Counted from the stretch's first letter, positions 23,322 to 50,836 are shown. The stretch: DNA of 64,000 nt from Microbacterium sp. (GCF_047606385.1 NZ_JASGEL010000091.1:1785-65784), one strand, 5' to 3'. Notes: generated by a model from the letters alone, not told the origin. Numbers and translations: made by a program.

Positions 23322-23968
23322 TCCGGCCTCCTCAGCATTCGGCGCAGCACCCCGTCGACATGGGCGACGGCCGCCTCGCGCGCAGCCGTCGCATCGCCCC
23401 GGTCGAGGCCGTCGACGATCCGCGCGTGCTCGTCGTAGGCGTAGCGGCGGTTCGCCGCATCGTTCCACATGGCGCTGCGGTACAGGTGGGTGACGGTGTC
23501 GAGCCGTGCCAGCGTGCCGACCAGCGTCGGGTTGCCGGCGGCATCCCGGATCGCGGCGTGGAAGGCGATGTCGGCGAGACGGTCCTCGACCTCGTCGGCC
23601 GTTGCCGCCAGGCGCGCGCGCTGCATCTCGAGGCTCGTGTGCAGCACGGCGAGCGCGCCCGCGGAGATCCGGCCCGCCGCCAGCCCTGCGGCGAGCCCGT
23701 CGAGCTCGCGGCGCACCGCGAACGCGTCCGCGAGCTGCCCGTCGTCGATGCGCGCCACCCGGGCGCCGGCGTAGGGGGTGTGCGTCGCCACGCCCTCGGA
23801 GATCAGCTGCTGCACGGCGTCGCGCACCGGGCTGCGGCTCACGCCGAGGTCGCGGGCGAGAGCCGGCACGCTGAGGGCCTCGCCCGGCGCCAGCTGCCCG
23901 GTGAGGATGCGGCCGCGCAGGTCGAGCAGGACGTTCTCGGCCAGCAAGGGGGAAGCGGTGATGGACAT
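23318..23968 (-). CDS. GntR-family transcriptional regulator (FadR/FCD subfamily)
   Basis: 216 aa from ATG 23968 (alternative ATG at 23992). Winged HTH (LSVPALARDLGVSRSPVRDAVQQLISEGV) and an FCD C-terminal domain. Confidence 0.85.
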   Translation of the reverse strand: MSITASPLLAENVLLDLRGRILTGQLAPGEALSVPALARDLGVSRSPVRDAVQQLISEGVATHTPYAGARVARIDDGQLADAFAVRRELDGLAAGLAAGRISAGALAVLHTSLEMQRARLAATADEVEDRLADIAFHAAIRDAAGNPTLVGTLARLDTVTHLYRSAMWNDAANRRYAYDEHARIVDGLDRGDATAAREAAVAHVDGVLRRMLRRPE

Positions 23969-23978
23969 TGCATGCAAT
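23967..23978. promoter_or_regulatory. Perfect 12-bp palindrome ATTGCATGCAAT (island motif)
   Basis: It overlaps the ATG of the GntR gene. The core TTGCATGCAA is identical to the site at 50827-50836. Confidence 0.4.
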
Positions 23979-24086
23979 CGTAGGATGCTCATCGGCGCCC
24001 GCCACGGTCCTCCGCGATCTGGTAACACGATGGTTACGTGCCGGCAAAACGGGCGGCATGCGCCGGGGTTGTACTGGTTGTGCGGG

Positions 24087-24104
24087 CAGATTACATGCAA
24101 TCTG
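24087..24104. promoter_or_regulatory. Near-palindrome CAGATTACATGCAATCTG (candidate operator)
   Basis: 16/18 positions are self-complementary. It lies 63 nt upstream of the 2OG-oxygenase ATG in the divergent GntR/oxygenase region and is one mismatch from the TTGCATGCAA core. Confidence 0.4.
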
Positions 24105-24166
24105 CCGGGCGGTTCGCCGTCGCCCGATCGCGTCCGGGATTCGACGCATCCGTTCGAAGGATCACC

Positions 24167-25153
24167 ATGACCACCGCCGATGACATGCAGGAGCTGCAGA
24201 AGGAACGCCGGATGGGCGGGGAGGGCGTCGTGTCCACCCGCCGCGAGCTGCGCCGCATCGACCTCACCGACTTCGAGGACCGCTTCGACGAGATCGCCGA
24301 CCAGCTGTGGCAGGCGGCGACCGAGGTGGGGTTCTTCCAGATCGTGGGCCACGGCATCCCGCAGCAGGACGTCGACCGCGCGTTCGCGATGTCGAAGGCG
24401 CTGTTCGACCTGCCCGCCGAGGTGAAGGAGCAGTACCCGCTGCGCAAGGCGGACAACGCCGGCTACGAGTACCGCTCGCAGGTGCGGCCCTCGATCGGGG
24501 TTCCCGACCAGAAGGAGAGCTACCAGATCACGCGGCCGTTCATGGCCGACCTGTGGCCCTCCGACGCCGAGCTCGCCGGCTTCCGCGACGCCATCCTCGG
24601 CTTCGAGCACGAGTGCTGGGCGCTCGCGATGCGGCTGCTGTCGTGCTTCGCGGTGAAGCTCGGCTTCGACCGCGACTTCTTCACCCGCGCCCACGACCCG
24701 GAGCAGGACACCTATCAGAGCACGCTGCGGCTGCTGCACTACTTCGCGGTGCCCGAGGAGGCGCGCGGCACGGACGCGCCGTGGCGCGCCGGCGCCCACA
24801 CCGACTTCGACGTGCTCACGCTGCTGTTCCAGCGCGACGGTCAGGGCGGTCTGGAGGTGCTGCCCGGCAAGGAGATGGAGACCGAGGAGTGGACGGCCGT
24901 CGAGCCCACGAGCGACTCGATCACCTGCAACATCGGCGACATGCTGATGCGCTGGAGCGACGACGTGCTGCCGTCGAACTTCCACCGGGTGCGCGGGCCG
25001 CGCGCGGGCGAGAACCAGGACGCCCGCTACAGCATCGCCTACTTCGCACAGGCCAACCGGGACGTCGTGATGACGAGCCCCACCGACGCCTGGGAGCCCA
25101 TCACCGCGCGCGACTACATCCTGCAGCGCATCGCGGCGAACTACGGCGGCTAG
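24167..25153 (+). CDS. 2-oxoglutarate/Fe(II)-dependent oxygenase (isopenicillin-N-synthase-like)
   Basis: ATG 24167 with RBS GAAGGA, 328 aa. DIOX_N-like N-terminus (FFQIVGHGIP) and an H-x-D...H facial triad region (GAHTDFDVLTLLFQ...NFHRV). Confidence 0.85.
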   Translation: MTTADDMQELQKERRMGGEGVVSTRRELRRIDLTDFEDRFDEIADQLWQAATEVGFFQIVGHGIPQQDVDRAFAMSKALFDLPAEVKEQYPLRKADNAGYEYRSQVRPSIGVPDQKESYQITRPFMADLWPSDAELAGFRDAILGFEHECWALAMRLLSCFAVKLGFDRDFFTRAHDPEQDTYQSTLRLLHYFAVPEEARGTDAPWRAGAHTDFDVLTLLFQRDGQGGLEVLPGKEMETEEWTAVEPTSDSITCNIGDMLMRWSDDVLPSNFHRVRGPRAGENQDARYSIAYFAQANRDVVMTSPTDAWEPITARDYILQRIAANYGG

Positions 25154-25455
25154 GGCGTGTCCCGGCGCGGCGCGCGGCGCAGGTCGAACCACGCGTCCGC
25201 CTGCGCCCGCGCCGCGTCGGTGAGCACCGTGAACACGACGGGTCCCCGGTCCAGGTCGGCAGCGGCCTGCACGAGATAGTCCCGCAGCAGCCACACGTCG
25301 GCCGGGTCGGCGTCGTCGACGGCGACCGTGCGCCGCAGGCGGTCGGGCGTGACGTCGAGATCGGCGGCGACGGCGTCCGCGTCGCGCCCGACGAGCTCGA
25401 ACGCCCGTTGCAGCTCTGCGCGGGTCCGTTCCCGCTCCCGTGCGTTCAGCGACAT
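25150..25455 (-). CDS. DUF2316-like small protein
   Basis: 101 aa (MSLNARERERTRAELQRAF...). The assignment is from general resemblance only. Confidence 0.5.
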   Translation of the reverse strand: MSLNARERERTRAELQRAFELVGRDADAVAADLDVTPDRLRRTVAVDDADPADVWLLRDYLVQAAADLDRGPVVFTVLTDAARAQADAWFDLRRAPRRDTP

Positions 25456-26317: not shown

Positions 26318-26659
26318 TCACGGATGCGTCGGGTCCGCACGCCGCCTCACGTCGACGACACCGGCGAGAGGAGCGGGGACCGCCACGATCCAGCTCCTCC
26401 CGGGGATGGAGGTGCCGGCGCGCGTCACGTACTCGTCGACGGTCAGGACGTACTCGTCCCCGACGCCGGACTCGTCCAGCGTCCCCGGCACGACGACGCC
26501 GTCGCGGAACAGGACGAGGAGGTCCCCCGTGGCGATGTCCTCGGTCCCCGTGCTCAGGCGCGCGCCGGGGTAGAGATGGCTGTGCGGTGTCGACCATGCC
26601 GGCACCTCGTCGTTCCCACCCGCCATGGCACCCACCTTAGAGGGCTCCACGGAGGTCAT
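26318..26659 (-). CDS. Hypothetical protein (113 aa)
   Basis: The ATG at 26659 overlaps the stop of the AKR gene (ATGA). No recognisable motif. Confidence 0.4.
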   Translation of the reverse strand: MTSVEPSKVGAMAGGNDEVPAWSTPHSHLYPGARLSTGTEDIATGDLLVLFRDGVVVPGTLDESGVGDEYVLTVDEYVTRAGTSIPGRSWIVAVPAPLAGVVDVRRRADPTHP

Positions 26660-27600
26660 CTCCCGCTGGCGTCGTCGAGTCGACCGATGTCGTCCGCGGT
26701 CAGCTCCAGCCGGACGGCGTCGAAGATCACGCCGAGCTGATCCGGCACCCGCGCGCTGCTGACCGGCGCCGCCACGGTGGGCTTGGCCAGGAGCCATGCG
26801 AGGGACACCGCCCCCGGAGCCGTGTCGTGCGCGGCGGCGACCTCGTCGAGCGCGGCGAGCACGCGTCGGCCCCGATCGGTGGCGAGATAGGCGTAGCCCG
26901 TCTCCGCCCGCGGTCCGGTCACCGTCACCCCGTCCCGATATTTCCCGGTGAGGAAGCCGCGCGCCATGGCGTTGTACGGCAGCACGGCCAGCCCGTGCTC
27001 GGCGGCCAAGGTCTCATAGGTGTCTTCGAAGCCGCGCTCGACCAGGTTGTAGAGCGTCTGCAGCGCCACCGGCCGGTAGAGGCCTTCCTCGTCGGCCGCG
27101 CGTATCCAGGCGCGGATGCGGTCCGGAGCCATGTTCGAGACGGCGGGGTATCGGATCCTGCCTTCGTCGACCAGGGCGCTGAACGTCTCCGCGACGTCCT
27201 CGATGGGCACCAGCGGGTCATCGTCGTGCACGTAGTAGAGATCGACGTAGTCGGTCTGCAGCCGGCGGAGCGAGCCCTCGAGCGCCGCGCGCACGGTGGC
27301 GGGGGCCAGGCCCTTGTACCGCGGGTGGTTGCCCGCCTTCGTCGCGATGACGAGGTCCTCCCGGTTCCCGTGGGCCCTCAGCCAGGTGCCGATGACCGTC
27401 TCCGACTCGCCGCCGGCGTGCCCGTCGACCCATGCCGAGTAGGAGTCGGCGGTGTCGACGAAGTTGCCGCCGAGACCGACGTAGCGATCGAGGACCGCGT
27501 GGCTGGTGGCTTCGTCGGACGTCCAGCCGAAGGTGTTGCCGCCCAGGTTGACCGGGAAGACGCGGAGATCGCTGGCTCCCAGCGTGGATCGCTCAGCCAC
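26656..27600 (-). CDS. Aldo/keto reductase
   Basis: 314 aa with an AKR pattern (FVDTADSYS, LVIATK, YYVHDDDP, VLPYNAMARGFLTGKY). Confidence 0.9.
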   Translation of the reverse strand: MAERSTLGASDLRVFPVNLGGNTFGWTSDEATSHAVLDRYVGLGGNFVDTADSYSAWVDGHAGGESETVIGTWLRAHGNREDLVIATKAGNHPRYKGLAPATVRAALEGSLRRLQTDYVDLYYVHDDDPLVPIEDVAETFSALVDEGRIRYPAVSNMAPDRIRAWIRAADEEGLYRPVALQTLYNLVERGFEDTYETLAAEHGLAVLPYNAMARGFLTGKYRDGVTVTGPRAETGYAYLATDRGRRVLAALDEVAAAHDTAPGAVSLAWLLAKPTVAAPVSSARVPDQLGVIFDAVRLELTADDIGRLDDASGR

Positions 27601-27638: not shown

Positions 27639-28787
27639 TCAGCGCGCGGTGGACGCCAGCGGGCCGGCCGTGTCCCGGTTCGCGAAGCGGTCGGGCCGGA
27701 AGCCCTCGAGGTCCGCCGCCTGACCGCCGAGGTCGTCCGCGATCAGGCTCGCGAGCGCAGGCGCCAACGTCACGGCGTTGTGGGTGACGGCGAAGTAGAT
27801 GCCCGGCGCCTGCGCGGACTCCCCCACCACGGGCAGTCCGCCCTGCGGGATCGCGCGAACCCCGGAACGGGTGCCCTCCACGGGGATGTCCGCCAGTGCC
27901 GGCACGATCGCACGCGCACGGCGCAGGGCCTCCGTGACCAGCGGGTCGTCGATGGCGAGGTGGCGCACCTGCTCCGACTGGGTGAGCTGGTCCGTGCCGA
28001 TCATGAGGCGGCCGCCGCCGTCGGGTCGCAGCGAGACCCCCGGGGCGAGCACGACGCGGTCGAGCGAGACCGGCGCCGGCGCCGTGACCGTCTGGTTCCC
28101 CGGCACGCTCTCGATCGGGATGTCGAGCCCGACACCGCGCGCGAGCGCCTGCGCTCCGGAGCCGGCCGCGAGCACGACGCGGTCGGCGTCGATCCGGACG
28201 CCGTCCTCGAGCAGCACCGCGGGGCGATCGCCGGCGATGAGCCGCGCCACGCGGCCGCGCAGATATCTGGAGTCATGCCGGTTGGCCGCCCGATCGAGCA
28301 GGGCGTTGACGAGGGGGACGACGTAGGCGTGGCCGCCCTGCCGCACCACGAAGACGCTGTCCACGCGCTCGGTGTCGAGACGCAGGTCCGGTTCGATCGC
28401 GCGCAGACCGTCGACCGAGAGCTCGTCGACGGTCACGTCCCATCCGCGCAGCTCGGCGACCGCGCCTCGCAGGTCGGCGACGCGCGTGGCGTCGTCCCGG
28501 TCCGCCCAGTGGATGCTGCCGTGGAACGTCGCCCAGTCGCCGCCGGTCTCGCTCAGCAGCCGCTGATATTCGTCCATCGCCCGGACGTGGAGGTCGAAGA
28601 CGGCCCGGGGTCCCTTGTCGAAGGCGTTGATCCAGCCGAACGCCGCCTTGCTGGTGCCGCCCGCGGGGTACGTCTCGTCCACGAGCGTGACGCGCGCGCC
28701 GCTCTCGGCGAGACGGAGCGCGACGCAGGTGCCCATGACTCCGGCCCCCACGACGACCACATGCGCGCCGGTCAGTTTTCGGGACAT
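27639..28787 (-). CDS. FAD-dependent oxidoreductase (DAO family, D-amino-acid/glycine-oxidase-like)
   Basis: Start at ATG 28787 (RBS GGAG). Dinucleotide fold VVVVGAGVMGTCVALRLAESG. 382 aa. Confidence 0.85.
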   Translation of the reverse strand: MSRKLTGAHVVVVGAGVMGTCVALRLAESGARVTLVDETYPAGGTSKAAFGWINAFDKGPRAVFDLHVRAMDEYQRLLSETGGDWATFHGSIHWADRDDATRVADLRGAVAELRGWDVTVDELSVDGLRAIEPDLRLDTERVDSVFVVRQGGHAYVVPLVNALLDRAANRHDSRYLRGRVARLIAGDRPAVLLEDGVRIDADRVVLAAGSGAQALARGVGLDIPIESVPGNQTVTAPAPVSLDRVVLAPGVSLRPDGGGRLMIGTDQLTQSEQVRHLAIDDPLVTEALRRARAIVPALADIPVEGTRSGVRAIPQGGLPVVGESAQAPGIYFAVTHNAVTLAPALASLIADDLGGQAADLEGFRPDRFANRDTAGPLASTAR

Positions 28788-28852
28788 GGTGAACTCCGCT
28801 TCCGCCGGTGACAAGGGATGGCAGGTTTTAGGCTACCAACTTGTCGGCGAGA

Positions 28853-28874
28853 TTGCATAGTTCTTTGTGTGCAA
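28853..28874. promoter_or_regulatory. Split island motif TTGCA-N12-TGCAA
   Basis: TTGCATAGTTCTTTGTGTGCAA lies 66 nt upstream of the DAO-family gene start. It is preceded by CAACTTGTCGGC (28837-28848), which resembles GAACTTGTCCGC at 42148-42159. Confidence 0.3.
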
Positions 28875-28906: not shown

Positions 28907-29581
28907 CTACCCTGCGGCGCGCCCCGGGGGGAACGCCCGCGCGATGATCGCCAGCGAGAACTCGACGTGCTCCCGCGCGCACTCGCCCGCCCGGTCGACG
29001 TCTCCCGCCAGGATCGCGTCCAGGGTCTCCGCGTGCTGCTCCGCGGACAGCTGGATGTCTGCCGGCGAGTAGAGCATCGCGACCCGGCTGTTGAAGTGGT
29101 AGACCTCGTTGTTGGCCAGGAGCTGCTCGATGCGGGGGTTGTTCGCCGCCCTCACGACGAGACGGTGGAACTGACTGTTCGCCTTCATCCGCGCATCGGC
29201 GGTCAGGTCCGTCGCGGTCGCGCTCTCACGGAAGGCCTCGAGCTCCGCCTTCTGCTCATCGGTGCCACGCGTGGCCGCGAGACGGGCGGCGTACGACTCG
29301 AGCGCCGCACGCACCTCGTAGACCTGCGTGATCTCGTCGTACGCATGCTCGTGCACGACCCATCGGCGGCGGCGGGACTCGATGAGGCCGTCGGCGGCCA
29401 GCCGCTGCAGGGACTCCCGCACCGGCGTCCGGCTCACCTGCAGCCGCTCGGCGATGTCGGCCTCGACGAGGGCCTCGTTCGGGCGCAACGCTCCGTTGAG
29501 GATGTTCTCGCGAAGCTGCCGGTAGACGAAGTCCGTCCGCTTCACGGCGCCCACGCGGCTGTCGACCGCATCCGTCGTCAC
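28907..29581 (-). CDS. GntR-family transcriptional regulator (FCD subfamily)
   Basis: 224 aa. HTH (LVEADIAERLQVSRTPVRESLQRLAADGLI) and an FCD domain. GTG start at 29581 with no obvious RBS, so the transcript may be leaderless. Confidence 0.85.
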   Translation of the reverse strand: MTTDAVDSRVGAVKRTDFVYRQLRENILNGALRPNEALVEADIAERLQVSRTPVRESLQRLAADGLIESRRRRWVVHEHAYDEITQVYEVRAALESYAARLAATRGTDEQKAELEAFRESATATDLTADARMKANSQFHRLVVRAANNPRIEQLLANNEVYHFNSRVAMLYSPADIQLSAEQHAETLDAILAGDVDRAGECAREHVEFSLAIIARAFPPGRAAG

Positions 29582-29598: not shown

Positions 29599-29609
29599 TT
29601 GCATGCTAA
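29599..29609. promoter_or_regulatory. Island motif TTGCATGCTAA upstream of GntR gene
   Basis: It lies 18 nt upstream of the GntR start. It is flanked by the 11-mer CACGGTAACAC (29579-29589), which is also present at 49868-49878. Confidence 0.4.
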
Positions 29610-29696
29610 CGAGAATACAGAATCACCCCCGACGCCCGTCGGTCGACGTCGAAGTCCGTCATGCGGGCGCGCCGGTGACGCTGCGAGCCGACGGGG

Positions 29697-30578
29697 TCAC
29701 CCCCGCCGGCGAGCCCGGAGGACGTCGATCACTCGCGAGTCGTCCCTGCGGCCCAGACCGGCGTCGCTTCCCTCGCGGAACAGCGCACGCGCGGTCGACG
29801 CCAGCGGTGTAATCGACTCGGCGTCCTCGACGGCGCCGGTGACGAGCCCCAGGTCCTTGACGAAGATGTCGATCGCGCTGCGGACCTCGTCGCCCTCCGC
29901 GGCGACCATGCGGCGGCCGCGGTCGTCGAGCATGAACGAGGCGGCCGCGCCGTGTCGGATCACCTCGTACGTCGCCGCGGGATCCAGCCCGAGCGTCTCG
30001 GCATAGGCGAGCGCCTCCGCCGCGGCCGCGATGTGGACGCCGCAGAGGAGCTGGTTGACGAGCTTGACCTTCTGCCCCACGCCCGGGGCGTCCCCCACGA
30101 TCGAGACCGTGCTCGCCATCGTGCTCAGCAACGGCTCGATCACGGCGAGCGCCTCCGGCGCCCCGCTGACCATGGCCAGCAGGTCCCCGCTGCCGGCGCG
30201 GGCGACGCCGCCGGACACCGGCGCGTCCACGACCGAGACCCCCGCCTGCTCGAGGCGCGAGGCGATGGCCTCCACGGCGGCGGGGCCCACCGTGGACATG
30301 ATCATCACCGTGCTGCCCGGCGCGAGGGATCCGGCCGCGCCGTCCGGTCCGAACAGGACGGAATCCGCCTGATCCGGCGTCGCGACCATCACCACGAGCA
30401 CGTCGGCGCCTTCCGCGACCGCCGCGCTGCCGGCCCCCGCGCCGACGCCCTGAGCCGCGACATCCGTCACGGACCGCGGGTTGACGTCGAACGCCGTCAC
30501 CTCGAAGCCCGCGCGCACGAGGCGCACCGCCATCGGCGCACCCATGGCGCCCAACCCGATCCATCCGACCCTCGTCAT
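29697..30578 (-). CDS. NAD(P)-dependent beta-hydroxyacid dehydrogenase (HIBADH/LtnD-like)
   Basis: 293 aa with Rossmann motif VGWIGLGAMGAPMA and a 6PGDH-type NAD-binding domain plus C-terminal helical domain. Strong RBS GAGGAGGA. Confidence 0.85.
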   Translation of the reverse strand: MTRVGWIGLGAMGAPMAVRLVRAGFEVTAFDVNPRSVTDVAAQGVGAGAGSAAVAEGADVLVVMVATPDQADSVLFGPDGAAGSLAPGSTVMIMSTVGPAAVEAIASRLEQAGVSVVDAPVSGGVARAGSGDLLAMVSGAPEALAVIEPLLSTMASTVSIVGDAPGVGQKVKLVNQLLCGVHIAAAAEALAYAETLGLDPAATYEVIRHGAAASFMLDDRGRRMVAAEGDEVRSAIDIFVKDLGLVTGAVEDAESITPLASTARALFREGSDAGLGRRDDSRVIDVLRARRRG

Positions 30579-30591: not shown

Positions 30592-32046
30592 TCATGCGGA
30601 CTGCTCGTTCAACGCGGTGACGACCTCGAGCAGGCTCGACTCGTCGCCGACGTTTCCCGGGAAGATGATGAACGGCACCCCGCGGGCGAGGTCGGCCGAG
30701 TCCGAGGGGATCATGACCGACACCCCGGGCCGCAGCTGGCCGAGCAGCGCCGCGCGCCGGATGCCGAGGCCCCGCACCGCGACGTCATGCGAGGTGATGC
30801 CGCCTTTGGCCACGACCCAGCCGGGGCGAGACGCCAGCACTCCCTGGACGACGGCGACCAGCGCCGTCGACACGGCCTGGGCGATCGCCAGGCTCTCCTC
30901 CGGCCCTGCGCCGTCGACGCGGCGACGGCTGGTGTACACCATGACGTCGGACGAGCGCAGCGCGTCCCGCACCCGCTCGACGGTGCGCCGCACGTGCGCG
31001 TCGCGCGTGCCCGGGTCCAGCAGCGGTGCGACGTCGAACTCGATGTCCGCCGCCCGGCCGGCCTGCCGCACCCGATCCAGCTGCCGGCCGGTCATGGCCA
31101 CATGGGATCCGGCGATGATCAGGCCGGGCCGCCGCGGCCGGCCTGCCGGCCAGATCTCCGCCGCGGTGACCAGGGCTCGCGGCTCGCTGCCGATCAGTGC
31201 GGCGACGAAGGAGGGCCCGGTGCGCATGAGGAAGCGCCGGCCGCCCTCCTGCGCACGGAGGATCCCCAGCATCGCGACCTCGTAGTCCGCGTCCTCGATG
31301 CCGTCGAGGACGACGAACCTGCCGTCGGCGACGTCGGCGAGCATCCGGGCGACCCGGTCCGGACCGCCCTCGCGGATGTCCGTCAGGGTCACGGCCGAGA
31401 TGTCGTCCCGCCGCACCGTTCCGCCGCTCTTCTCGACGATGAAGTCGCGCAGATCGGAGGACGCGTACCCGAAGGTCGCGTCGCGGGCGAACTCGGTGTC
31501 CGCGACCGGGACGTACTCCCCGGCCACCTTCGCCCAGTGCACCGACCCCGCGGTGACCCGCCCTGCGGCGAACAGCGCCGGCGCGACGATCACGCCGTCG
31601 TATCCGCGACCGAGGACCTCACGGCGGGCGTCGTCGAGCGCGCGCACCTCGTCGAGGATGTGCCCGCGCAACGTCGAGTCGCTGCGGCTCACCATGTCGA
31701 GCTCGAAGCCCTCGCGCTCCGATATCCGCAGCAGGTCCCGGGCGACCGTCGCCGTCAGCTCGACGGCGTCCGCGCGCTGCATGCCGCGCGTGTTCGTCAG
31801 GACGAAGGTCGCGCCGTCCGCCCGGCCGAGCGCGGAGGCGTACACGGCGGGGTCGAGGGCGGTCACGATCTCGACGTCGTGCACGGACTGCGATCCGGTG
31901 GGATCGTCGTCCAGCACGACCGTGCGGCCCCCGGACCGGCGACGTGCCCGGCGGATCGTCTCGCGTGCGCCCTCGACGCGCAGCGGCGGCGGGCACCCCT
32001 CCAGGCCCGGGACCGCGCCCGGGACCGCCGGCGTGGCGCTGCTCAT
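30592..32046 (-). CDS. Four-carbon acid-sugar kinase family protein (DUF1537, OtnK/DtnK-like)
   Basis: Internal ATG at 32046 (MSSATPAV...), 484 aa. N-terminal VLDDDPTGSQ and C-terminal KGGITS motifs are typical of DUF1537 kinases. ATGA overlap with the upstream regulator stop. Confidence 0.8.
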   Translation of the reverse strand: MSSATPAVPGAVPGLEGCPPPLRVEGARETIRRARRRSGGRTVVLDDDPTGSQSVHDVEIVTALDPAVYASALGRADGATFVLTNTRGMQRADAVELTATVARDLLRISEREGFELDMVSRSDSTLRGHILDEVRALDDARREVLGRGYDGVIVAPALFAAGRVTAGSVHWAKVAGEYVPVADTEFARDATFGYASSDLRDFIVEKSGGTVRRDDISAVTLTDIREGGPDRVARMLADVADGRFVVLDGIEDADYEVAMLGILRAQEGGRRFLMRTGPSFVAALIGSEPRALVTAAEIWPAGRPRRPGLIIAGSHVAMTGRQLDRVRQAGRAADIEFDVAPLLDPGTRDAHVRRTVERVRDALRSSDVMVYTSRRRVDGAGPEESLAIAQAVSTALVAVVQGVLASRPGWVVAKGGITSHDVAVRGLGIRRAALLGQLRPGVSVMIPSDSADLARGVPFIIFPGNVGDESSLLEVVTALNEQSA

Positions 32047-40285: not shown

Positions 40286-40286
40286 C

Positions 40287-41165: not shown

Positions 41166-41178
41166 GACCGCGCCTCGC

Positions 41179-42099: not shown

Positions 42100-42139
42100 C
42101 TGATGGTCACCCGCTCTCTCATCGCTTCAGCGTACCAGC

Positions 42140-42159
42140 TTGCATGCGAACTTGTCCGC
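42140..42159. promoter_or_regulatory. Conserved 20-nt operator-like module TTGCATGCGAACTTGTCCGC
   Basis: 18/20 identical to 49892-49911. It lies 41 nt upstream of the dppB-like start. On the coding (minus) strand it is followed after 5 nt by the -10-like TACGCT. It abuts the AT palindrome AAAAATTTTT (42160-42169). Confidence 0.45.
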
Positions 42160-43316: not shown

Positions 43317-45300
43317 GGCTCATCCCGGAGAACGCGTGCTCCACCATCTGCACCGTGATGACGGTCTCGCCGGTGGCGGTCAGCACCGTGTTCAGCCGCT
43401 CCAGCACCCGCTGGTTGACGGTCTCGCGGACGACGTGCGGGTACGCCCGCAGCTCGGTGACGAGCCGGCGTTCCGCACCGGCGCCCCACCGCGCGTCGTG
43501 CGCCTCCCGCCCGGCGCCGTAGCTGAACCCCGGCTCTCCGTCGGCCGAGCCCGGTGTCGCGCGGCGGCCGCGCTCGGCGGCGGTCGCGTCGTCGTCCACG
43601 ACGCCGGCGTCGTCGACGACGACGCCGTACTGCTCCCGGGCCTGCCTCGCGTCGAGCAGGCCCGCGTCGACGTCGGCCGCGACCAGGTGCGCAGGCCGGT
43701 CCTGCGGACGCCCGATGGCGCCGCCCGTCGGCGTGCGGAAGCTGATCGTGTCGCCGTAGCCGAGCGGCACCAGGTCCACCCGCCCGATTGCCTGTTCCCG
43801 CTCGGTGCCCGCGTTGAGGACGACGTCGCCGCGAGCGCCCGGGGCGCCGCCCGCCACTCCCCACGGCTGGAAGTGGAAGCGCTCGAGACCACGGGTCGCG
43901 ACCTCCACGCCGTCCTGCAGCGAACGCATCCGGAACTCGACGCCGACGCCGCCGCGATGCTCGCCTGGCGCGGAGGAGCCCGGAAGCAGGCCGTACTCCT
44001 CGACGAGGATGGGCATCTCCGCCTCGAGCACCTCGTTCGGGACGTTCGCCAGGTGGCCCCCGCCGCCGAACGTGGATCCGTCGACGCCGTCCAGGTGGGG
44101 ACGCGCCCCGGAGCCGCCGAGGAACGGCTGCGCCACCGCCACCTTCTGCGTGCCGGTGTGCTCGTCCATCGCGGCCACCAGCACGATCGCGGCGGAGCCG
44201 GGCCCCGCGGTGGGGAACAGGTCGGGCATGGCCTGGACGAGACAGCCGAGGATGCAGTCGTGGACGCGCATCGCGGTCGCGTAGCGCGCGCCGCACGCCG
44301 CCTCGGGCCCGGGGTGCAGGAGCGTGCCCTCGGGCGCCCGGAAGTGGATCGACCGCACCATTCCCGAGTTGTAGGGGATCGTCGGCTCCATCGTGCGCAG
44401 CCAGTTCCGGATCGGGACCGTGACCTGGTAGTGCACGGGGTGGCCGTAGGTCGGCAGGTTCAGCGCGGCGCGCACCTCGACGTCCGTGCCCTCGAAGTCC
44501 AGGTAGAGGTCGGAGCCGCGGGACTCGAGCGTGCACTCGATGCGGACCGGACGCGCGCCCGGGGCGTCGCGCTCCATGTAGTCGACGAAGCGATAGACGC
44601 CGTCGGGGATCCGCGAGAGCAGGTCCCTCGCGCGGTGCTCCGCGAGGTCCATCACGTCGCCGATCCCCTGCCGCACCGCCTCGGCGCCGTAGCGATCGAC
44701 GACCTCCAGGATCCGCTGCTCGCCGCGGTTGAGACCGGCGATCTGGGCCTGGATGTCGCCCCAGAACGGCTCGGGGATGCGGGAGTTGAGCTTGATGATG
44801 TCCCTGACCGCCGTGTTGAGCACGCCGCCTTCGTACAGCCGCACGGGCGGGATCCGCAGGCCCTCGTGGTAGATGTCGCGGCTGGACATCGCGATGCTGC
44901 CCGGCACGACACCGCCGACGTCTGACGAGTGGATGAAGGACATCGCGTAGCCCACGACCTCGTCCTCGACGAAGATCGCCTTCCACAGGAAGACGTCGGG
45001 GAGGTGGGTGGCGAGCCCCCCGGTCGAGAACGGGTCGTTGGCGATGCCGACGTCGCCCGGCCGGTAGGGCGCGAGCGCCTCGATCGCCTTCATCGTCGGC
45101 AGTCCCACCATCGAGTTGTCGGCGCGGTCCGTGGCGGTGGCGAAGACCTCGCCGTCGGGCGCGACCAGTGCGCACCCGAAGTCCGCGGTCTCCTTGATGT
45201 AGACCGTGAACGCCGTCTGCAGGACGACCGCGGTCATCTCTTCGGCGATCGACTTGAACCGGTTCTTCAGGATCTCGGTCTGGACGGCCTTGGTGGTCAC
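43309..45300 (-). CDS. hyuB: Hydantoinase B/oxoprolinase-family protein
   Basis: 663 aa with a typical HyuB N-terminus (EILKNRFKSIAEEMTAVVLQTAFTVYIKETADFGCAL). Confidence 0.9.
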   Translation of the reverse strand: MTTKAVQTEILKNRFKSIAEEMTAVVLQTAFTVYIKETADFGCALVAPDGEVFATATDRADNSMVGLPTMKAIEALAPYRPGDVGIANDPFSTGGLATHLPDVFLWKAIFVEDEVVGYAMSFIHSSDVGGVVPGSIAMSSRDIYHEGLRIPPVRLYEGGVLNTAVRDIIKLNSRIPEPFWGDIQAQIAGLNRGEQRILEVVDRYGAEAVRQGIGDVMDLAEHRARDLLSRIPDGVYRFVDYMERDAPGARPVRIECTLESRGSDLYLDFEGTDVEVRAALNLPTYGHPVHYQVTVPIRNWLRTMEPTIPYNSGMVRSIHFRAPEGTLLHPGPEAACGARYATAMRVHDCILGCLVQAMPDLFPTAGPGSAAIVLVAAMDEHTGTQKVAVAQPFLGGSGARPHLDGVDGSTFGGGGHLANVPNEVLEAEMPILVEEYGLLPGSSAPGEHRGGVGVEFRMRSLQDGVEVATRGLERFHFQPWGVAGGAPGARGDVVLNAGTEREQAIGRVDLVPLGYGDTISFRTPTGGAIGRPQDRPAHLVAADVDAGLLDARQAREQYGVVVDDAGVVDDDATAAERGRRATPGSADGEPGFSYGAGREAHDARWGAGAERRLVTELRAYPHVVRETVNQRVLERLNTVLTATGETVITVQMVEHAFSGMSHD

Positions 45301-47342
45301 GCGTCATCCCTCGCTTTCGCGACAATGTTCAACTCGGAGTCGATCACGACCGAGAAGGTCGGCGGCACGAAGATCGTCGTGTCGTCGGATTCGATGACCG
45401 CCGGCCCGCAGAACGCGTCCTGCGGGGCGAGCAGCGATCGCTCGTAGATCGCGGCGACGACGATCTCGCCGTGATAGGCGACCGGACGCCGGGTCGGCTC
45501 GGCGCTGCGCTGCCCGTCGGCGTCCACGCGGCGGGAGACGACCGGCACGGCGTTCGGCGCCACGAGCGTCACCTGGGCGGCGACGATCTCCACCGCCGCG
45601 TCTTCGTCGGCGATGCCGTATGCCCTGCGGTAGTCGCGGTGGAAGGCCTCGACCACCTCCGACACCCGGGTGGTGCCGCCGCTCTCCAGCCGCGGCAGAT
45701 CCACGTCCACCGTGAACGTCTGGCCGACGTAGCGCACCTCGGCTTTGCGGAGATAGTGGGCGTCCGCGTTCGGCGAGAGCCGGAACCACTCGCGAGCAGC
45801 CGCCTCGAGCTCGCCGAAGACCTCCTCGAGGGCGTCGTCGGAGACCGTGCGCGCCTCGACGTTGAGGCTGCGGACGACATCGTGCCGGAAGTCCGCCACC
45901 AACCCGCCCTGCGCGCACAGCGTGCCGGGCCGGTTGGGGATGATCACCTTGTCGAAGCCGATGACCTCGGCCACGAGCATGGCCATCGTCGGGCCCGCCC
46001 CGCCGTAGGCGAACAGGGCGTAGTCGGACGCCGACAGCCCGCGCAGCGCCAGCAGCGGCACGAGCTGGGCGTGCATGTTCGCGATGGCGATGTCGAGGAT
46101 GGCGCTGGACACCGATGGCACGTCGAGATCGAGCTCGTCGCCGATCGTGGAGAGCGCCGACTCCGCCGCGGCCGGCGAGAGCTCGAGCCGGCCGTCGAGG
46201 AAGCGACGAGGATTCACGATGCCGGCGACGAGGAGGGCGTCGGTGACCGTCGCCTGGGTGCCGCCGCGCCGATAGCAGGCGGGACCGGGCGTCGATCCCG
46301 CGCTCGCCGGGCCGACCTGGAGGTTCCCGCCGGGCCCGACGGTCGCGATCGAACCGCCGCCGGCGCCGATCGCGGAGATGTCCACCGTCGGGAGGATGAG
46401 CGGAAGCGCCCCGATGCGGGCCTCCGTCGAGTACGGGATCTCGCCGTCGATGATCGACACGTCCGCGCTGGTGCCGCCGATGTCGAGCGTGACGATGCGC
46501 GACTCGCCGGCGAGCCTCGCGATGTGCGTCGCCGCCGTCACGCCGGCGGCGGGACCGGACAGCAGCATGTGGACGGGGTTGTCCTTCGCCGCCTCCACAC
46601 CCATCAGCCCGCCGTTCGAGCGCGTCGTCAGGATCGGCGCCTGGATGCCCAGTTCCCGCATCCCCTCACGGAGAGCCGTGAAATACGTCCGCATCCGATC
46701 GCCGACGTACGCGTTCATCACCGTGATCAGGCCGCGTTCGTACTCGCGCTGCACGGGCCAGACGCTGCTGGAGACGCTGACGAACAGGTCCGGATACGTG
46801 CTCTCGATGATCTCGCGGACCGCGTCCTCGTGCCGCGGGTCGCGGTAGGAGTGCATCAGGCACACGGCGATCGCCTGGACGCCTGCGGCATGCAGCGACG
46901 CGACCTGCCGGAGCACCTCTTCCTCGTCGACCGGCCGCAGCTCGTCCCCGGAGGCGAGCAGGCGCGCGCTGATCTCCCGCACCAGACGGCGCGGCACGAG
47001 GAGGGGCTGCTTGACCGAGAACAGGTCCGACGGGTTCTCCAGTTTGAGCCGCGCCATCTCCAGCATGTCCGCGAAGCCGCTGCTGACGATCAGGCCCGTC
47101 GCCGCGCCGCCGCGCTCGATCAGCGTGTTGAGCGCCAGGGTCGTGCCGTGGGCGAAGTAGACGACCTCGGCGGCGTCCACGCCGTGGTCGCGCAGGAGGG
47201 TCCGCAGACCGTCGAGAACGCCCTCGGCGGGATCGTCGGGGGTGGTGAAGACCTTGAAGGCGATCACCTCGCCGGAGGCATCGTCGATCGCTGCGAGATC
47301 GGTGAACGTCCCACCGATGTCGACGCCGACACGTATGGGCAT
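45297..47342 (-). CDS. hyuA: Hydantoinase A/oxoprolinase-family protein (ATP-binding subunit)
   Basis: 681 aa with an ASKHA-type N-terminus (VGVDIGGTFTDL). 4-nt overlap with hyuB. Confidence 0.9.
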   Translation of the reverse strand: MPIRVGVDIGGTFTDLAAIDDASGEVIAFKVFTTPDDPAEGVLDGLRTLLRDHGVDAAEVVYFAHGTTLALNTLIERGGAATGLIVSSGFADMLEMARLKLENPSDLFSVKQPLLVPRRLVREISARLLASGDELRPVDEEEVLRQVASLHAAGVQAIAVCLMHSYRDPRHEDAVREIIESTYPDLFVSVSSSVWPVQREYERGLITVMNAYVGDRMRTYFTALREGMRELGIQAPILTTRSNGGLMGVEAAKDNPVHMLLSGPAAGVTAATHIARLAGESRIVTLDIGGTSADVSIIDGEIPYSTEARIGALPLILPTVDISAIGAGGGSIATVGPGGNLQVGPASAGSTPGPACYRRGGTQATVTDALLVAGIVNPRRFLDGRLELSPAAAESALSTIGDELDLDVPSVSSAILDIAIANMHAQLVPLLALRGLSASDYALFAYGGAGPTMAMLVAEVIGFDKVIIPNRPGTLCAQGGLVADFRHDVVRSLNVEARTVSDDALEEVFGELEAAAREWFRLSPNADAHYLRKAEVRYVGQTFTVDVDLPRLESGGTTRVSEVVEAFHRDYRRAYGIADEDAAVEIVAAQVTLVAPNAVPVVSRRVDADGQRSAEPTRRPVAYHGEIVVAAIYERSLLAPQDAFCGPAVIESDDTTIFVPPTFSVVIDSELNIVAKARDDA

Positions 47343-47378
47343 GCGAGGCCTTTCTGATAGCTGGAGGAGTGGTTCTCG

Positions 47379-47966
47379 TCAGACCGCCCAGGCGGCTGCC
47401 GCCTCGGGCTGGCAGCGAGGATCGCCGCCTTCGCCGCCGCGGTAGTCCGCGACCTGGCCGTCGATGACGTAGCCGGTGTCGGTGGTCATGCTCCGACACC
47501 ACTCCGGCGAGACGCACGAGCGGGCTCCGTACGATTCGACGGCGGCCATGATGACGGGCAGGCCGGCTCGCACCTCGGCCGCGCTCCGCTCGGGGTCGGC
47601 GAGCCGGACGCCGGCGGTCTCGGCCATCGCGGTGATGTCCTCGAGCTGCCTCGCCGCCCAGCCGTGGGGATCGGCGTTCAGCGCGTCGTCGAAGTTCCCG
47701 TACTCCGGCTCCATCCCCGGGAACCGGGGGTGGAAGTGCGCCGACCTGCCGTTGCCCTTCGGCAGTCCGACGGTGTCGAAGAGGTCCGCGCGCCAGAAGA
47801 TCCCGTCGATGAGGATCGGCTGGGCGACCGAGCGGCTCCCGCGCATCACGATCGGCGTGACGGTGCGCAGGTCGATGCGCGCCCCGTGCTCTTCATGACC
47901 GGTGCCGACCTCGTACCAGTGCCGGACCATGACGACGACCTCGGAGAAGTGGAACAGCGTTTGCAT
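47379..47966 (-). CDS. Hypothetical protein (195 aa), no family recognised
   Basis: I prefer ATG 47966 (MQTLFHF..., RBS GGAGG 9 nt upstream) over 47981. It ends 36 nt before hyuA. Real-protein composition, with His/Cys-containing segments (HWYEVGTGHEEH, HFHPRFPG, C-x5-C). Confidence 0.5.
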   Translation of the reverse strand: MQTLFHFSEVVVMVRHWYEVGTGHEEHGARIDLRTVTPIVMRGSRSVAQPILIDGIFWRADLFDTVGLPKGNGRSAHFHPRFPGMEPEYGNFDDALNADPHGWAARQLEDITAMAETAGVRLADPERSAAEVRAGLPVIMAAVESYGARSCVSPEWCRSMTTDTGYVIDGQVADYRGGEGGDPRCQPEAAAAWAV

Positions 47967-48041
47967 TTCTCGAACCTCCATTTCGGGCGCGTGCGTGCCC
48001 TGTGTTCTTCCTTGGGCGACGGCTGGCCTGATGGCGGGCCG

Positions 48042-49817
48042 TCAATAGACGGGTCGGACGACCTCGCCGGACTCGGGGACGTCCCATGCCGAGACGGGCG
48101 GGAGCTGGTCGATGACGTGAGGCACCCGGATGCTCAGGAATGTCGGCCCCTGCCGGTCGCGCGCCGCCCGGAGCTCGATCTCCAGCTCGTCGAGGGTGCG
48201 GACGTCCGCTCCCGGCACGCCGCATGCCTCCGCCACCTTCACGGCGTCGATCGCGCCGGGGGTCACCCCGAAATAGCGCTGGCCCATGTACAGGTGCTGG
48301 AGCATCTTTATCCAACCGTAGCTCGCGTTGTCGAACTCGATGAACAGCACCGGCAGCTGATACCGGGCCGCGGTCTCCAGCTCGCCGCAGGCCATCGCGA
48401 AACTGCCGTCGGCGGTGAAGCAGACCACGCGGCCTCCGGTGCCGATGGCGGCCCCCATGGCGGCCGGGATCGCATATCCCATCGCGCCGTGTCCTCGCGG
48501 CAGCACCACCGTGCGGCCCGGCTTGTCGAGCTCCCAGAACGAGGCGAGGTACGGCGTCGGCGTTCCCGGGTCGCCCACGGCGACGACCTCGGAGCCGAAC
48601 ACCGCCTGCACGCGCGTGACGACGTCGGCCGGCGAGAGCTTGCCGGCCTCGGTCGAGGTCGGGACGCCGGCCTCCTTCCAGGCGCGCCTCGCGGCGGCCA
48701 CCTCCGCGACGACCGCGTCGCGGTCCACGGCGAGGTCTACGCCCTCGAGCGCGTCGAGGAGCTGGCGGAGCACGGTGCGGCTGTCTCCGACGACCGCCAG
48801 GGAGCCCGGATAGTTCCTCCCGGCGCGGGTGGCGTCGATGTCGATGTGGATCACGGTCACGTCCGGTTCCCGGCGCGGCGCCCGCCAGCTGTCGGTGTTG
48901 GTCGCGTTCGCGCGCGTTCCGACGAAGATCACGGTGTCCGCGGATGCGACGTAGTCGAACGCGTAGCGGCGGGCGCCGTTGTTGCCGACCACGCCGAGCG
49001 AGTAGGGATCGTCGTCGGCGATCACGCCTTTGCCGTGGATGCTCGTGGCCACCGGGGCGCCGACACGCTCGGCGAGGGCCCGCAGCTCGGCGGCGGCGGA
49101 CGAGGTGTGCACGCCGGAGCCGGCGACGATCGCGGGTCGCTTCGCGCGGGCGATCGCCGCGACCGCGGCCTGCACGACATCGGTGGCCGCGGCGGGCCGC
49201 TCGGCGGGAAGGTCTTCGACCGAGGGAATGGCGGCGTCGGTCAGCTCGTCGCGGGCGATGGTGTGGTCGAGCACGTCCTCGGGGAAGATCAGCACCACCG
49301 GGGCGGGGCGACCCGTCGTCGCGGCGCGCAGCGCGTCGGCGACCGCCGCGGGGATGTCCGCCGGCCGTTCCACCACCCGCGAGAACTTGGTCACGGCGCT
49401 GAAGAGCTTCACCTGGTCGATCTCGGTGAGAGCCCCGGAGCCGCGGCTGGCCGTATGGATGTCCGAGGTGATGAGCAGGACGGGAATCCCCGCCGCGTAC
49501 GACTCTCCCATCGAGCCGACCGCATAGCTGCACCCGCCACCGCTGGAGACCTCCGCGACGCCCACGCGACCCGTCGTGCGCGAATAGGCGTCGGCCATCG
49601 CGAGCGCGTGACGCTCGTCTCGGGTGAGCACGTGGACGATGTCGTCGCGGTGGTCGTTCAACGCGTCGTAGAACACGACCCCGGTGTCGCCGGGAAGGCC
49701 GAAGATCTCCTTGACCCCCGCCGAGACCAGCGTCTCCACGAGCAGATCGGCGCCTCGCACCTGTCCGTCGCTCTCGGTCGTGCGCCGCTCTGCCGGTGCC
49801 GTCACTGTCACATCCAC
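48042..49817 (-). CDS. Thiamine-pyrophosphate-dependent enzyme (acetolactate-synthase-like)
   Basis: 591 aa with an N-terminal Pyr domain (GVKEIFGLPGD) and a C-terminal PP domain with TADGSFAM...N. GTG start with RBS GAGGAG. Confidence 0.9.
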   Translation of the reverse strand: MDVTVTAPAERRTTESDGQVRGADLLVETLVSAGVKEIFGLPGDTGVVFYDALNDHRDDIVHVLTRDERHALAMADAYSRTTGRVGVAEVSSGGGCSYAVGSMGESYAAGIPVLLITSDIHTASRGSGALTEIDQVKLFSAVTKFSRVVERPADIPAAVADALRAATTGRPAPVVLIFPEDVLDHTIARDELTDAAIPSVEDLPAERPAAATDVVQAAVAAIARAKRPAIVAGSGVHTSSAAAELRALAERVGAPVATSIHGKGVIADDDPYSLGVVGNNGARRYAFDYVASADTVIFVGTRANATNTDSWRAPRREPDVTVIHIDIDATRAGRNYPGSLAVVGDSRTVLRQLLDALEGVDLAVDRDAVVAEVAAARRAWKEAGVPTSTEAGKLSPADVVTRVQAVFGSEVVAVGDPGTPTPYLASFWELDKPGRTVVLPRGHGAMGYAIPAAMGAAIGTGGRVVCFTADGSFAMACGELETAARYQLPVLFIEFDNASYGWIKMLQHLYMGQRYFGVTPGAIDAVKVAEACGVPGADVRTLDELEIELRAARDRQGPTFLSIRVPHVIDQLPPVSAWDVPESGEVVRPVY

Positions 49818-49891
49818 GTCTCAGCGTCTCCTCGTCGGCCGGTGGTGCGTCCGATCGACGCGCTGTCCACGGTAACACATTGTAGACCACT

Positions 49892-49911
49892 TTGCATGCG
49901 AAGTTGTGCGC
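49892..49911. promoter_or_regulatory. Conserved 20-nt operator-like module TTGCATGCGAAGTTGTGCGC
   Basis: 18/20 identical to 42140-42159. On the minus strand it is followed after 7 nt by the -10-like TACAAT (49884-49879) and then by GTGTTACCGTG (49878-49868). It lies 75 nt upstream of the TPP-enzyme start. Confidence 0.45.
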
Positions 49912-49946
49912 GGATCTGTGCCGCCGAGCATGGCGCGGCCCTGCGC

Positions 49947-50747
49947 TCAGACCGGCCCGTCGCCCGGCACGGTCCGGGCCGGCGGAGCGCCCCAGTACGC
50001 ACGCACGAGATTGGCGTAGAGCGCGACGTAGTCCTCTTTCGAGGGCACGTCCACGAGCGTCTCCGGGCAGAGATAGCCGCTGTAGGAGTCCGCGCGCAGG
50101 AGTGCCATGAGCTCGTCGTAGGGGAAGTCGCTCGCGAGATCGTGCAGGTCGATGTGACGCAGATAGGGCCTGATCCGCTGATAGGTGGAGGCGATGCTGC
50201 CTCCCACGAGGTCGCGGTGGTCGCTGTTGTAGTGCAGTCCCAGATTCGGCCGATCGGCCAGGCGCAGGATCTCGAGGGCGAAGTGCCAATTGTTGATCTC
50301 GCCGTGCATCTCCAGCAGCAGCTCGATGCCCACCGAGGCCGCCTCGTCGGCGAGACGCTGGAGGCTCTGCGCGATGCCGGCCAGCGTGATGTCGCGGTCG
50401 ACGCCCGGATGCAGGTCGTTCCCGCAGACCCGCACCATGGGCGATGCGATGTCGTGGGCCAGCTCGATGTGCCGGATGGCGTTGTCCTCGGCCTTCGTGC
50501 GCTGCGCCGGGTCGGGACTGTCGAACCGGGCGCCCGAGCGCACGCACGCCGCCTCGAGGTAGGCGTCCTGGATCTTGTCACGGATCGCACGGCGCTCCTG
50601 TGCGCTGCGCTCGATCTCCACGCCGTGGGCGTTTCCGTACTCGCATCGGAAGTCGAGGCCGGCGAACCCCCGCCGGCGCGCGATGTCGATCATCTCGTCG
50701 AGAGTCCAGCTCTTGCCCAGGCCGTAGGACAGCAGTGAGAGCCTCAT
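49947..50747 (-). CDS. Sugar-phosphate isomerase/epimerase (xylose-isomerase-like TIM barrel)
   Basis: Start at ATG 50747 (RBS GAAGGAG), 266 aa, AP_endonuc_2-type pattern. Confidence 0.85.
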   Translation of the reverse strand: MRLSLLSYGLGKSWTLDEMIDIARRRGFAGLDFRCEYGNAHGVEIERSAQERRAIRDKIQDAYLEAACVRSGARFDSPDPAQRTKAEDNAIRHIELAHDIASPMVRVCGNDLHPGVDRDITLAGIAQSLQRLADEAASVGIELLLEMHGEINNWHFALEILRLADRPNLGLHYNSDHRDLVGGSIASTYQRIRPYLRHIDLHDLASDFPYDELMALLRADSYSGYLCPETLVDVPSKEDYVALYANLVRAYWGAPPARTVPGDGPV

Positions 50748-50826
50748 GATTGCTCCTTCATTCGATGGGTCGAGGCATGCGCTGGCGGACGCGCTCGGCG
50801 CTGCCGGAGGTCGCATGCTCATTACT

Positions 50827-50836
50827 TGCATGCAAA
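50827..50836. promoter_or_regulatory. Perfect palindrome TTGCATGCAA (island motif)
   Basis: It lies 80 nt upstream of the TIM-barrel gene start. Two more GCATGC hexamers occur within 60 bp (50814-50819 and 50775-50780). Confidence 0.4.

Follow-up and report, generated by a model that had tools for sequence, protein, structure and literature searches.

The window analysed here, a stretch of 64,000 nucleotides from Microbacterium sp. (GCF_047606385.1 NZ_JASGEL010000091.1:1785-65784), contains a catabolic gene cluster in which one octamer, TTGCATGC, recurs in front of transcription units. The question raised by this locus is whether the octamer is a product of base composition, a generic promoter element, or the binding site of regulators encoded in the cluster, and if the last, of which ones. 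A sequence-only reading of the window had taken it as the mark of an island-wide regulon. Our analysis indicates that the motif is probably the operator of FadR-like (FCD) GntR repressors, with two repressor-operator systems in the cluster that share TTGCATGC. The two proteins are designated GntR-C (216 aa, 23318..23968, minus strand) and GntR-I (224 aa, 28907..29581, minus strand). Both pass the Pfam cut-offs for the GntR winged helix-turn-helix (PF00392) and FCD (PF07729) domains, and they share only 32% identity. For GntR-C, GntR-I and a TIM-barrel protein of the cluster, counterparts of 100% identity were found in a Microbacterium sp. metagenome-assembled genome, on a contig of 76.6 kb. 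Genes were called by GC3 frame analysis together with Pfam and NCBIfam matches. Loci retrieved for comparison carry L numbers.

The octamer in the window

TTGCATGC occurs at five sites, 23968, 29599, 42140, 49892 and 50826. The sequence-only reading had located the same five, the last of them one base off, at 50827. Because two of the sites are the perfect palindrome TTGCATGCAA, as had also been recognized, the five sites amount to seven strand hits. The expected number is 0.62, in agreement with the earlier estimate of about one or less by chance, and 0 of 100 shuffles reached seven. Allowing up to one mismatch to TTGCATGCAA gives six sites, including TTACATGCAA at 24091, against 0.31 expected. 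The hexamer GCATGC alone is present in 31 copies in the window with 28.6 expected, i.e. at chance level, and is therefore uninformative; this had been correctly judged from a count of about 20, which was too low.

By the gene calls, all five sites are non-coding and each lies upstream of a minus-strand unit; that every copy precedes a transcription unit of the island had been claimed before. At 50826 the longest open reading frame (ORF) of a gene for a TIM-barrel protein covers the site. The gene in fact begins at ATG 50747, a codon that follows an AAGGAG Shine-Dalgarno sequence and coincides with the N-terminus of an orthologue (85% match over 46 aa); the site is therefore upstream of the gene and not inside it. 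In a census of 8-mers over 3.1 kb of strict intergenic DNA, GCATGCAA ranks first, with occurrences in five separate regions. A scan with a position weight matrix (PWM) gave seven hits with a score of at least 11, all of them non-coding; as the matrix was derived from the strong sites themselves, the new information is confined to the weak hits at 28861 and 35611.

Specificity of the motif was judged on the 64-kb window and the retrieved loci. Beyond the cluster (outside 23.9-50.9 kb), the remaining 35 kb of the window have no copy of TTGCATGC, and the motif was not found in the unrelated actinobacterial loci L003, L009 and L010. The refuting outcome named in the sequence-only reading, a generic promoter element, was not observed in the window and these loci. 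Taken together, these data support the view that the motif is a genuine cis-regulatory element at the promoters of catabolic transcription units.

Two putative operator classes and their predicted regulators

The sites are non-random, intergenic and conserved beside orthologous regulators, and their flanks and patterns of variability differ between two classes, here called C-type and I-type.

C-type sites occupy the divergent region between the GntR-C/amidohydrolase unit and the gene of a 2-oxoglutarate (2OG)-Fe(II) oxygenase. Their consensus is ATTrCATGyAAT, a 12-bp palindrome, with copies at 23967 and 24090, 123 bp apart. The predicted operator O1, ATTGCATGCAAT (23967..23978), overlaps with its last bases the ATG of GntR-C (23968-23966); a TANNNT-like TACGAT is located just upstream of it on the minus strand. 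The predicted operator O2, ATTACATGCAAT within CAGATTACATGCAATCTG (24090..24101), lies 66 nt before the oxygenase ATG at 24167, a start that is preceded by GAAGGA and with which the orthologue lengths of 328-336 aa agree.

Homologues of GntR-C were found in L013 (92% identity), L014 (64%), L016-L018 (59%) and the Gordonia locus L107 (50%). The 2OG oxygenase gene always adjoins, and in L013-L018 the amidohydrolase gene is also present downstream of the GntR-C homologue. The rest of the island is not present in the loci with extended flanks, L014, L016-L018 and L107, where 10-20 kb of flanking DNA were covered for L014 and L016-L018. In L013, L014 and L016 both 12-bp palindromes are kept, but the stretch that separates them has diverged. 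They read ATTGCATGTAAT and ATTGCATGCAAT in L013, the latter at the same place as O1 of the window, ATTACATGTAAT and ATTACATGCAAA in L014, and ATTACATGCTAT and ATTGCATGTAAT in L016; the first named in each pair is the counterpart of O2, with diverged flanks. The genes in Gordonia are co-directional, and the operon leader contains four copies of nTACATGTAn. This conservation is the phylogenetic footprint of a putatively autoregulated divergent module, and GntR-C is predicted to be an autorepressor reading the C-type operators. A scan of genome contigs with GntR-C gave relatives of at most 47% identity over partial segments and at most 35% over most of the protein, which were of no use for footprinting.

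The leader of about 50 nt from O2 to the oxygenase ATG (24102-24166) is almost unchanged in L013 and L014 (GntR 64%), although the neighbouring intergenic sequence has diverged, and it contains two short hairpin-capable stems. An RNA element in this leader was considered and rejected: the window has no Rfam match at the gathering threshold, none was found at E<=1 around 23900-24260, and the leader folds no better than shuffled sequences.

The I-type consensus is yTTGCATGCrAA, with strong sites at 29599, 42140, 49892 and 50826 and weak ones at 28865 and 35615. The predicted operator of the GntR-I gene, TTGCATGCTA with a phased GAATAC at +12 (29599..29618; GCATGC-N6-GAATAC at 29601), ends 18 nt upstream of the GTG start at 29581. 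Two further predicted operators contain TTGCATGCGA: GCGTAC-N6-GCATGC (42130..42149) is located 40 nt upstream of the start of a permease gene at 42099, and GTAGAC-N6-GCATGC (49882..49901) 75 nt upstream of the start of a thiamine pyrophosphate (TPP) enzyme gene at 49817. The fourth, TTGCATGCAA with GCATAC at +12 (50826..50845; GCATGC-N6-GCATAC at 50828, with another GCATGC at 50813), precedes ATG 50747 by 79 nt. The weak site GCATAG-N6-GTGTGC (28855..28874, with the 10-mer TTGTGTGCAA at 28865) is situated between the GntR-I stop codon and the start of a DAO-family gene at 28814. It has a PWM score of 13.5 and a 12-bp-phased partner, is without cross-species evidence, and is identical with the TTGCA-N12-TGCAA that had been listed as a degenerate copy at 28853-28874. 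The weak candidate TCGTATGCAA (35615..35624; PWM score 11.5, without phased partner) lies 29 nt upstream of a monooxygenase gene (34351..35586, minus strand), and L052, L053 and L060 carry the identical 10-mer immediately after GntR homologues. A half-site near 35618 had been noticed before and assigned to a monooxygenase. The ORF on the plus strand at 35619 that had been taken for this monooxygenase is the shadow of a major facilitator superfamily (MFS) transporter gene (35676..36917, minus strand); the monooxygenase gene that the half-site does precede is the one at 34351..35586.

GntR-I is predicted to be an autorepressor and the regulator of the I-type sites. The criterion tested for membership in the VanR-type subgroup was the metal-binding His triad in the FCD domain. 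The candidate residues of GntR-I, H139, H183 and H205, are invariant in a sequence alignment of 22 homologues, as are E40, R51, T52 and R55.

Sixteen I-type sites were aligned on the central hexamer, with a match to GYATRC defined as at least 5 of 6 positions. A second GYATRC hexamer occurs at +12 in 11 of the 16 sites and at -12 in seven, while other offsets are represented by zero or one site, except +24, the second multiple of 12, with three. Partner hexamers phased in this way are absent from the C-type sites. The variable positions differ as well: in I-type sites G3 is fixed and position 4 is either C or T, whereas in C-type sites C4 is fixed and position 3 is either G or A. The octamer sites are thus two related classes of putative operators and not one motif, and the octamer of the sequence-only reading caught both because TTGCATGCAA is the intersection of the two consensus sequences. 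The phased partners suggest side-by-side binding of several dimers. To our knowledge, a 12-bp-phased array of palindromic hexamers is an architecture undescribed for FCD regulators. It is conceivable, though we would not expect it, that GntR-I-type regulators form higher-order oligomers on such arrays of two or three GYATRC hexamers and that the two GntR proteins cross-talk at TTGCATGCAA, layering the control of a rare catabolic cluster for a nitrogen-containing substrate. TACGCT/TACAAT after the operator was considered as a -10 box and dropped, the positions coinciding with the phased partner hexamer.

The conservation of the motif upstream of orthologous units, proposed as a check together with the original claim, was found in other genomes for the I-type sites also. 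L019 encodes a 69% GntR-I orthologue with a TIM-barrel orthologue directly after it, and TTTTGCATGCGAAG is located in the upstream intergenic region. In L020 (60% homologue) ACAATCTTGCATGCAAACTGGTACGC, which contains TTGCATGCAA, lies between the GntR stop codon and the next gene and is almost the same 26-mer as the extended 42140 site of the window, ACAAGTTCGCATGCAAGCTGGTACGC. L021 (Streptosporangium sp. NPDC051022, 1-20762) carries a syntenic cluster in the order GntR, creatinase-like, ATP-binding cassette (ABC) ATPases, family-5 solute-binding protein, HydA, HydB, TIM barrel, TPP enzyme, permeases, old yellow enzyme (OYE)-like, unknown, DAO, GntR, DAO. Both of its GntR proteins are I-type (53-55%). 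One strong site, CTTTGCATGCAAAG, lies between an I-type GntR and the operon head, and a DAO gene also follows the second I-type GntR, as it follows GntR-I in the window.

A metagenome scan with the I-type alignment returned 80 loci. In L054, L055 and L057/L065 the GntR match is preceded, at a distance of 66-268 bp, by a perfect TTGCATGCAA; about 0.003 perfect matches are expected in the sequence searched (base-composition estimate). One-mismatch variants occur in L059, L064 and L066, and CTGCATGCGA or CTGTATGCAG in L033, L067 and L036. As a specificity control, L024 has a similar TPP/TIM/DAO module beside an unrelated GntR (30% identity), and the motif was not found there; the motif therefore tracks the regulator clade and not the enzymes.

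A further element, GGTAACAC, occurs in three copies against 0.22 expected (24021-24038, 29579-29589 and 49868-49878), always in operator-bearing intergenic regions. CACGGTAACAC is common to the leaders of GntR-I and the TPP gene. In the GntR-C/oxygenase region GGTAACAC forms GTAAC-N6-GTTAC, which is kept in L013, L014 and L016. The actinobacterial GlnR box has the pattern gTnAc-n6-GaAAc; the element resembles it and could be the site of a second regulator or a promoter element.

Proposed mechanism, related regulators and competing explanations

GntR-C would bind ATTrCATGyAAT, one copy of which lies over its own start codon and presumed promoter, and would repress itself and both flanking units. 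GntR-I would act on yTTGCATGCrAA, which in most cases has one or two weaker GYATRC hexamers beside it at a distance of exactly 12 bp. Four units read in the same direction have a predicted strong site in front of them, namely the GntR-I gene itself, the ABC transporter unit, the TPP/hydantoinase/DAO unit and the gene of the TIM-barrel protein; the weak sites lie in front of the DAO/aldo-keto reductase (AKR) pair and the monooxygenase gene. By analogy with characterised FCD regulators, the two half-sites would each be occupied by one winged helix-turn-helix of a dimer, and the conserved Arg would contact G3. Occupancy of a site over or just upstream of the core promoter would block transcription, and a pathway metabolite bound in the FCD domain would release the repressor. 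The distances to the start codons (overlap for O1, then 18, 40, 75 and 79 nt) fit promoter occlusion. We infer the binding itself, the pairing of proteins with sites, repression in preference to activation, and the effector.

Among solved structures the best match of GntR-I is Atu1419 (PDB 6z74, E 4e-15), and that of GntR-C is PDB 7xp0. Atu1419 of Agrobacterium fabrum is an autorepressor of the FCD/VanR subgroup of GntR proteins (PDB 6z74, 6za0) and contacts DNA through Glu34, Arg45, Thr46 and Arg49; its operator is the 10-bp palindrome ATGTATACAT, in which G3, read by Arg45, is essential (PMC7797058). Two palindromes are located 190 bp apart in a divergent region, over the -10 or between the -35 and -10 elements, together with degenerate secondary sites, and the protein is a tetramer that is released by methylene-tetrahydrofolate (PMC7797058). 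TTGCATGCAA likewise has perfect dyad symmetry over 10 bp, its third and eighth bases being G and C, and the two GntR-C palindromes, 123 bp apart, also lie in a divergent region. E40/R51/T52/R55 of GntR-I are spaced as the four contact residues of Atu1419 in a comparison at the sequence level; GntR-C carries R45/S46/R49 but V at position 34. G and C at the symmetric positions 3 and 8 are found in TTGCATGCAA and in ATTrCATGyAAT, where C-type position 3 can be A. A conserved operator accompanies the regulator in its own promoter region in the C-type loci L013, L014, L016 and L107; among the I-type loci, operator and regulator are conserved together in L019, L020, L021, L054, L055, L057, L059, L064, L033 and L067. 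Atu1419 differs in its low sequence similarity, being a family relative and not an orthologue of GntR-I, in the inner bases (GTATAC there, GCATGC or ACATGT here), and in its pathway. Its distant sites are joined by a loop, whereas the I-type sites have closely phased 12-bp partner hexamers.

Structures of FadR of E. coli are available (1H9T, 1HW2; cited in PMC7797058). FadR resembles the system predicted here as a dimeric repressor with a winged helix-turn-helix and an alpha-helical effector domain that acts on a short dyad and is released by its effector, and in the reading of half-sites by Arg/Thr/Arg of the recognition helix. It differs in its C-terminal domain, which is of the 7-helix FadR type and binds acyl-CoA, in its operator, TGGTnnnACCA with a 3-bp spacer as opposed to TTGC/GCAA half-sites 2 bp apart, and in the second conserved base, which is only T in FadR sites and C (or T) here. 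The general operator pattern of the FadR subfamily, reportedly given by Rigali et al. in 2002, is t.GT(N0-3)AC.a. NanR of E. coli is an FCD GntR protein that acts on tandem GGTATA repeats with cooperative occupancy by several dimers. Its closely spaced hexamer array resembles the I-type arrays, but the repeats are direct and non-palindromic there, and palindromic with a much stronger central unit here. A literature search for the exact 10-mer TTGCATGCAA as a bacterial operator returned nothing relevant.

Several points weigh against two separate repressor-operator systems. A scan for sigma-70 consensus promoters in all operator regions found none, a terminator scan likewise gave nothing, and the overlap with core promoters was judged by eye from the start-codon distances. 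The SR(T/S)PVR recognition helix and the core octamer are shared, which leaves room for cross-binding or for one protein at all sites. The weak sites at 28865 and 35615 are tentative candidates taken from a matrix built on the strong ones, and both binding and repression at the sites are predicted. The closest metagenomic relatives of GntR-I (50-55%, L027-L042) have no motif within 330 bp upstream; they are uninformative and not contradictory because in most of them this stretch is coding sequence of the upstream gene. L026, a Protaetiibacter metagenome-assembled genome (54%), has a degenerate site only, and no site was found in L025, a Metarhizobium contig with fragmented ORFs that is uninformative.

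A single regulon, with all seven or eight sites bound by the same protein, GntR-C or GntR-I, and everything at 22-51 kb regulated together, would account for the facts that every site carries TTGCATGC or a one-base variant, that the recognition helices are nearly the same (VSRSPVRD and VSRTPVRE), and that TTGCATGCAA fits the consensus sequences of both classes. We nevertheless regard it as unlikely, since by flanks and variable positions the sites fall cleanly into two classes, which follow two groups of orthologues, with the 12-bp-phased partners missing from the C-type. The three-gene GntR-C module with its own sites stands alone in L013-L018 and L107, without I-type genes, and the loci L019-L021 and L054-L067, where I-type sites occur, encode no C-type GntR. 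The claim of an island-wide regulon is not upheld for the further reason that the middle of the island (the genes for the GAF-PucR regulator, a four-carbon-acid kinase, a 3-hydroxyisobutyrate-dehydrogenase-like (3-HIBDH-like) protein and the MFS transporter) is without a strong site. Activation by the GntR proteins (class I/II) in place of repression would be more surprising still. The sites at 49892 and 50826, 75-80 nt upstream of start codons, could lie upstream of the promoter, and a few FCD regulators can activate, such as FadR on fabA; but O1 overlaps the start codon of its regulator, the sites at 29599 and 42140 end only 18 and 40 nt from a start, and Atu1419, the nearest relative that has been characterised, represses, its palindromes covering the -10 or lying between the -35 and -10 elements.

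We give hardly any credence to the remaining two explanations. The GAF-PucR protein (32043..33989) is a DNA-binding regulator encoded inside the cluster and had been named as a candidate reader beside the two FCD-type GntR proteins. These two remain the likely readers, whereas PucR is not implicated: the region upstream of its gene (33990-34350) is without a site, L019, L020, L021 and numerous metagenomic loci carry the motif and GntR-I homologues but encode no PucR, and a perfect palindrome of 10-12 bp with G3/C8 fits a solved FCD-GntR complex. Chance, composition or a generic promoter element, such as TTGCAT in the role of a -35 box, would draw on intergenic DNA being more AT-rich than coding DNA (GC 0.54-0.65, with about 0.71 for the window), which favours AT-containing words, and on the resemblance of TTGCAT to TTGACA. 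It is equally far from plausible in view of the shuffles, the absence of copies from the other intergenic regions of the window and from unrelated actinobacterial loci, the conservation of both halves of the dyad across genomes, and the strict 12-bp phasing of the partner hexamers.

With two FCD-GntR repressors as the preferred explanation, the locus would be a previously undescribed example of ordinary bacterial gene control, which leaves the view of GntR regulation unchanged; the split into two classes and the 12-bp-phased arrays are its only mildly unusual points. An anonymous motif is converted into two testable regulator-operator assignments, and a set of some 20 likely co-regulated genes is defined within an uncharacterised catabolic cluster of Microbacterium. 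Because an FCD effector is usually a pathway intermediate, the assignment gives a handle on the substrate. The operator models (ATTrCATGyAAT, and yTTGCATGCrAA with 12-bp partners) are reusable for homologous clusters in Streptosporangium, Gordonia, Protaetiibacter and many soil metagenomes.

The catabolic cluster and other features of the window

Nearly every gene at 22-58 kb is on the minus strand, which applies to all genes below unless stated otherwise. The TIM-barrel protein (49947..50747, 266 aa; Pfam AP_endonuc_2) is xylose-isomerase-like and belongs to a rare family: among 5.8 billion proteins only 20 homologues reach E<=1e-30. A metagenome scan with it found no relatives. L022 and L023, where a TIM-barrel homologue occurs in a non-syntenic context, were left out of the comparison. 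The catabolic unit 42201..49817 is headed by the TPP enzyme (48042..49817) and further encodes a 200-aa protein of unknown family, hydantoinase A, hydantoinase B and a DAO-family oxidoreductase (Pfam, NCBIfam). It is followed by a Dpp/Opp-type ABC transporter unit (37006..42099; Pfam) with two permeases, two ATPases and a family-5 solute-binding protein, by the MFS transporter gene, and by the monooxygenase gene, whose product is ACAD/SfnB-like. The GAF-PucR gene (Pfam), a four-carbon-acid sugar kinase gene (about 30592..32040; Pfam SBD_N + NBD_C) and the 3-HIBDH-like gene (29697..30578) come next. Downstream of GntR-I are the DAO-family FAD oxidoreductase (27639..28814; Pfam) and the AKR (26656..27600; Pfam). 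A glyoxalase gene is located between the AKR and the 2OG oxygenase gene (24167..25153, plus strand, 328 aa; Pfam DIOX_N + 2OG-FeII_Oxy), which is divergent from GntR-C. The amidohydrolase gene (22104..23321; Pfam Amidohydro_3/1) overlaps GntR-C by 4 bp and is co-transcribed with it.

No cluster protein reaches an NCBIfam equivalog threshold, and no pathway is named from these models. Sub-threshold matches were obtained to ThiO-like oxidases, 5-guanidino-2-oxopentanoate decarboxylase-like TPP enzymes, SfnB-like and 2-oxo-tetronate isomerase-like proteins. The kinase and the 3-HIBDH-like gene lie together between PucR and GntR-I (29697-32040), and the TIM-barrel protein has a weak match to 2-oxo-tetronate isomerase; the three together hint at a threonate/erythronate-like module inside the cluster. 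Directly upstream, at 50904-58486, are genes for an NAD-glutamate dehydrogenase (1077 aa, 50904..54137, upstream of the 50826 site), a pyrroline-5-carboxylate (P5C) reductase and a PutA-type proline dehydrogenase/P5C dehydrogenase, all without the motif. Judged by these gene annotations, the cluster is placed in a neighbourhood of amino-acid and nitrogen catabolism.

The hydantoinase/TIM/TPP/Dpp-transporter/DAO cluster is syntenic between Microbacterium and Streptosporangium, members of different orders. An OYE-like FMN/FAD oxidoreductase gene is present in L021 and L026 and a creatinase-like gene in L021, neither of them in the window. Cross-order synteny and the rarity of the TIM-barrel family indicate that the pathway is patchy and possibly horizontally spread. 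The GC content along the window gives no compositional sign of a foreign island.

Another 8-mer, CATAACTC, occurs in seven copies against 0.14 expected, at 16130-16221, 20515-20618 and 21614-21717; half a copy lies near 6531-6544. The repeat is arranged in inverted pairs, GTGTCATAACTCCGCCT ... AGGCGGAGTTATGACAC, with 17-bp arms and a non-conserved GC-rich spacer of about 40-55 bp. Two of the repeat copies flank or overlap ORF 20649..21926 (minus strand), which has a weak REase_MTES_1575 match. These inverted pairs may be a repeat of the repetitive extragenic palindrome (REP)- or miniature inverted-repeat transposable element (MITE)-like kind, or an attC-like one.

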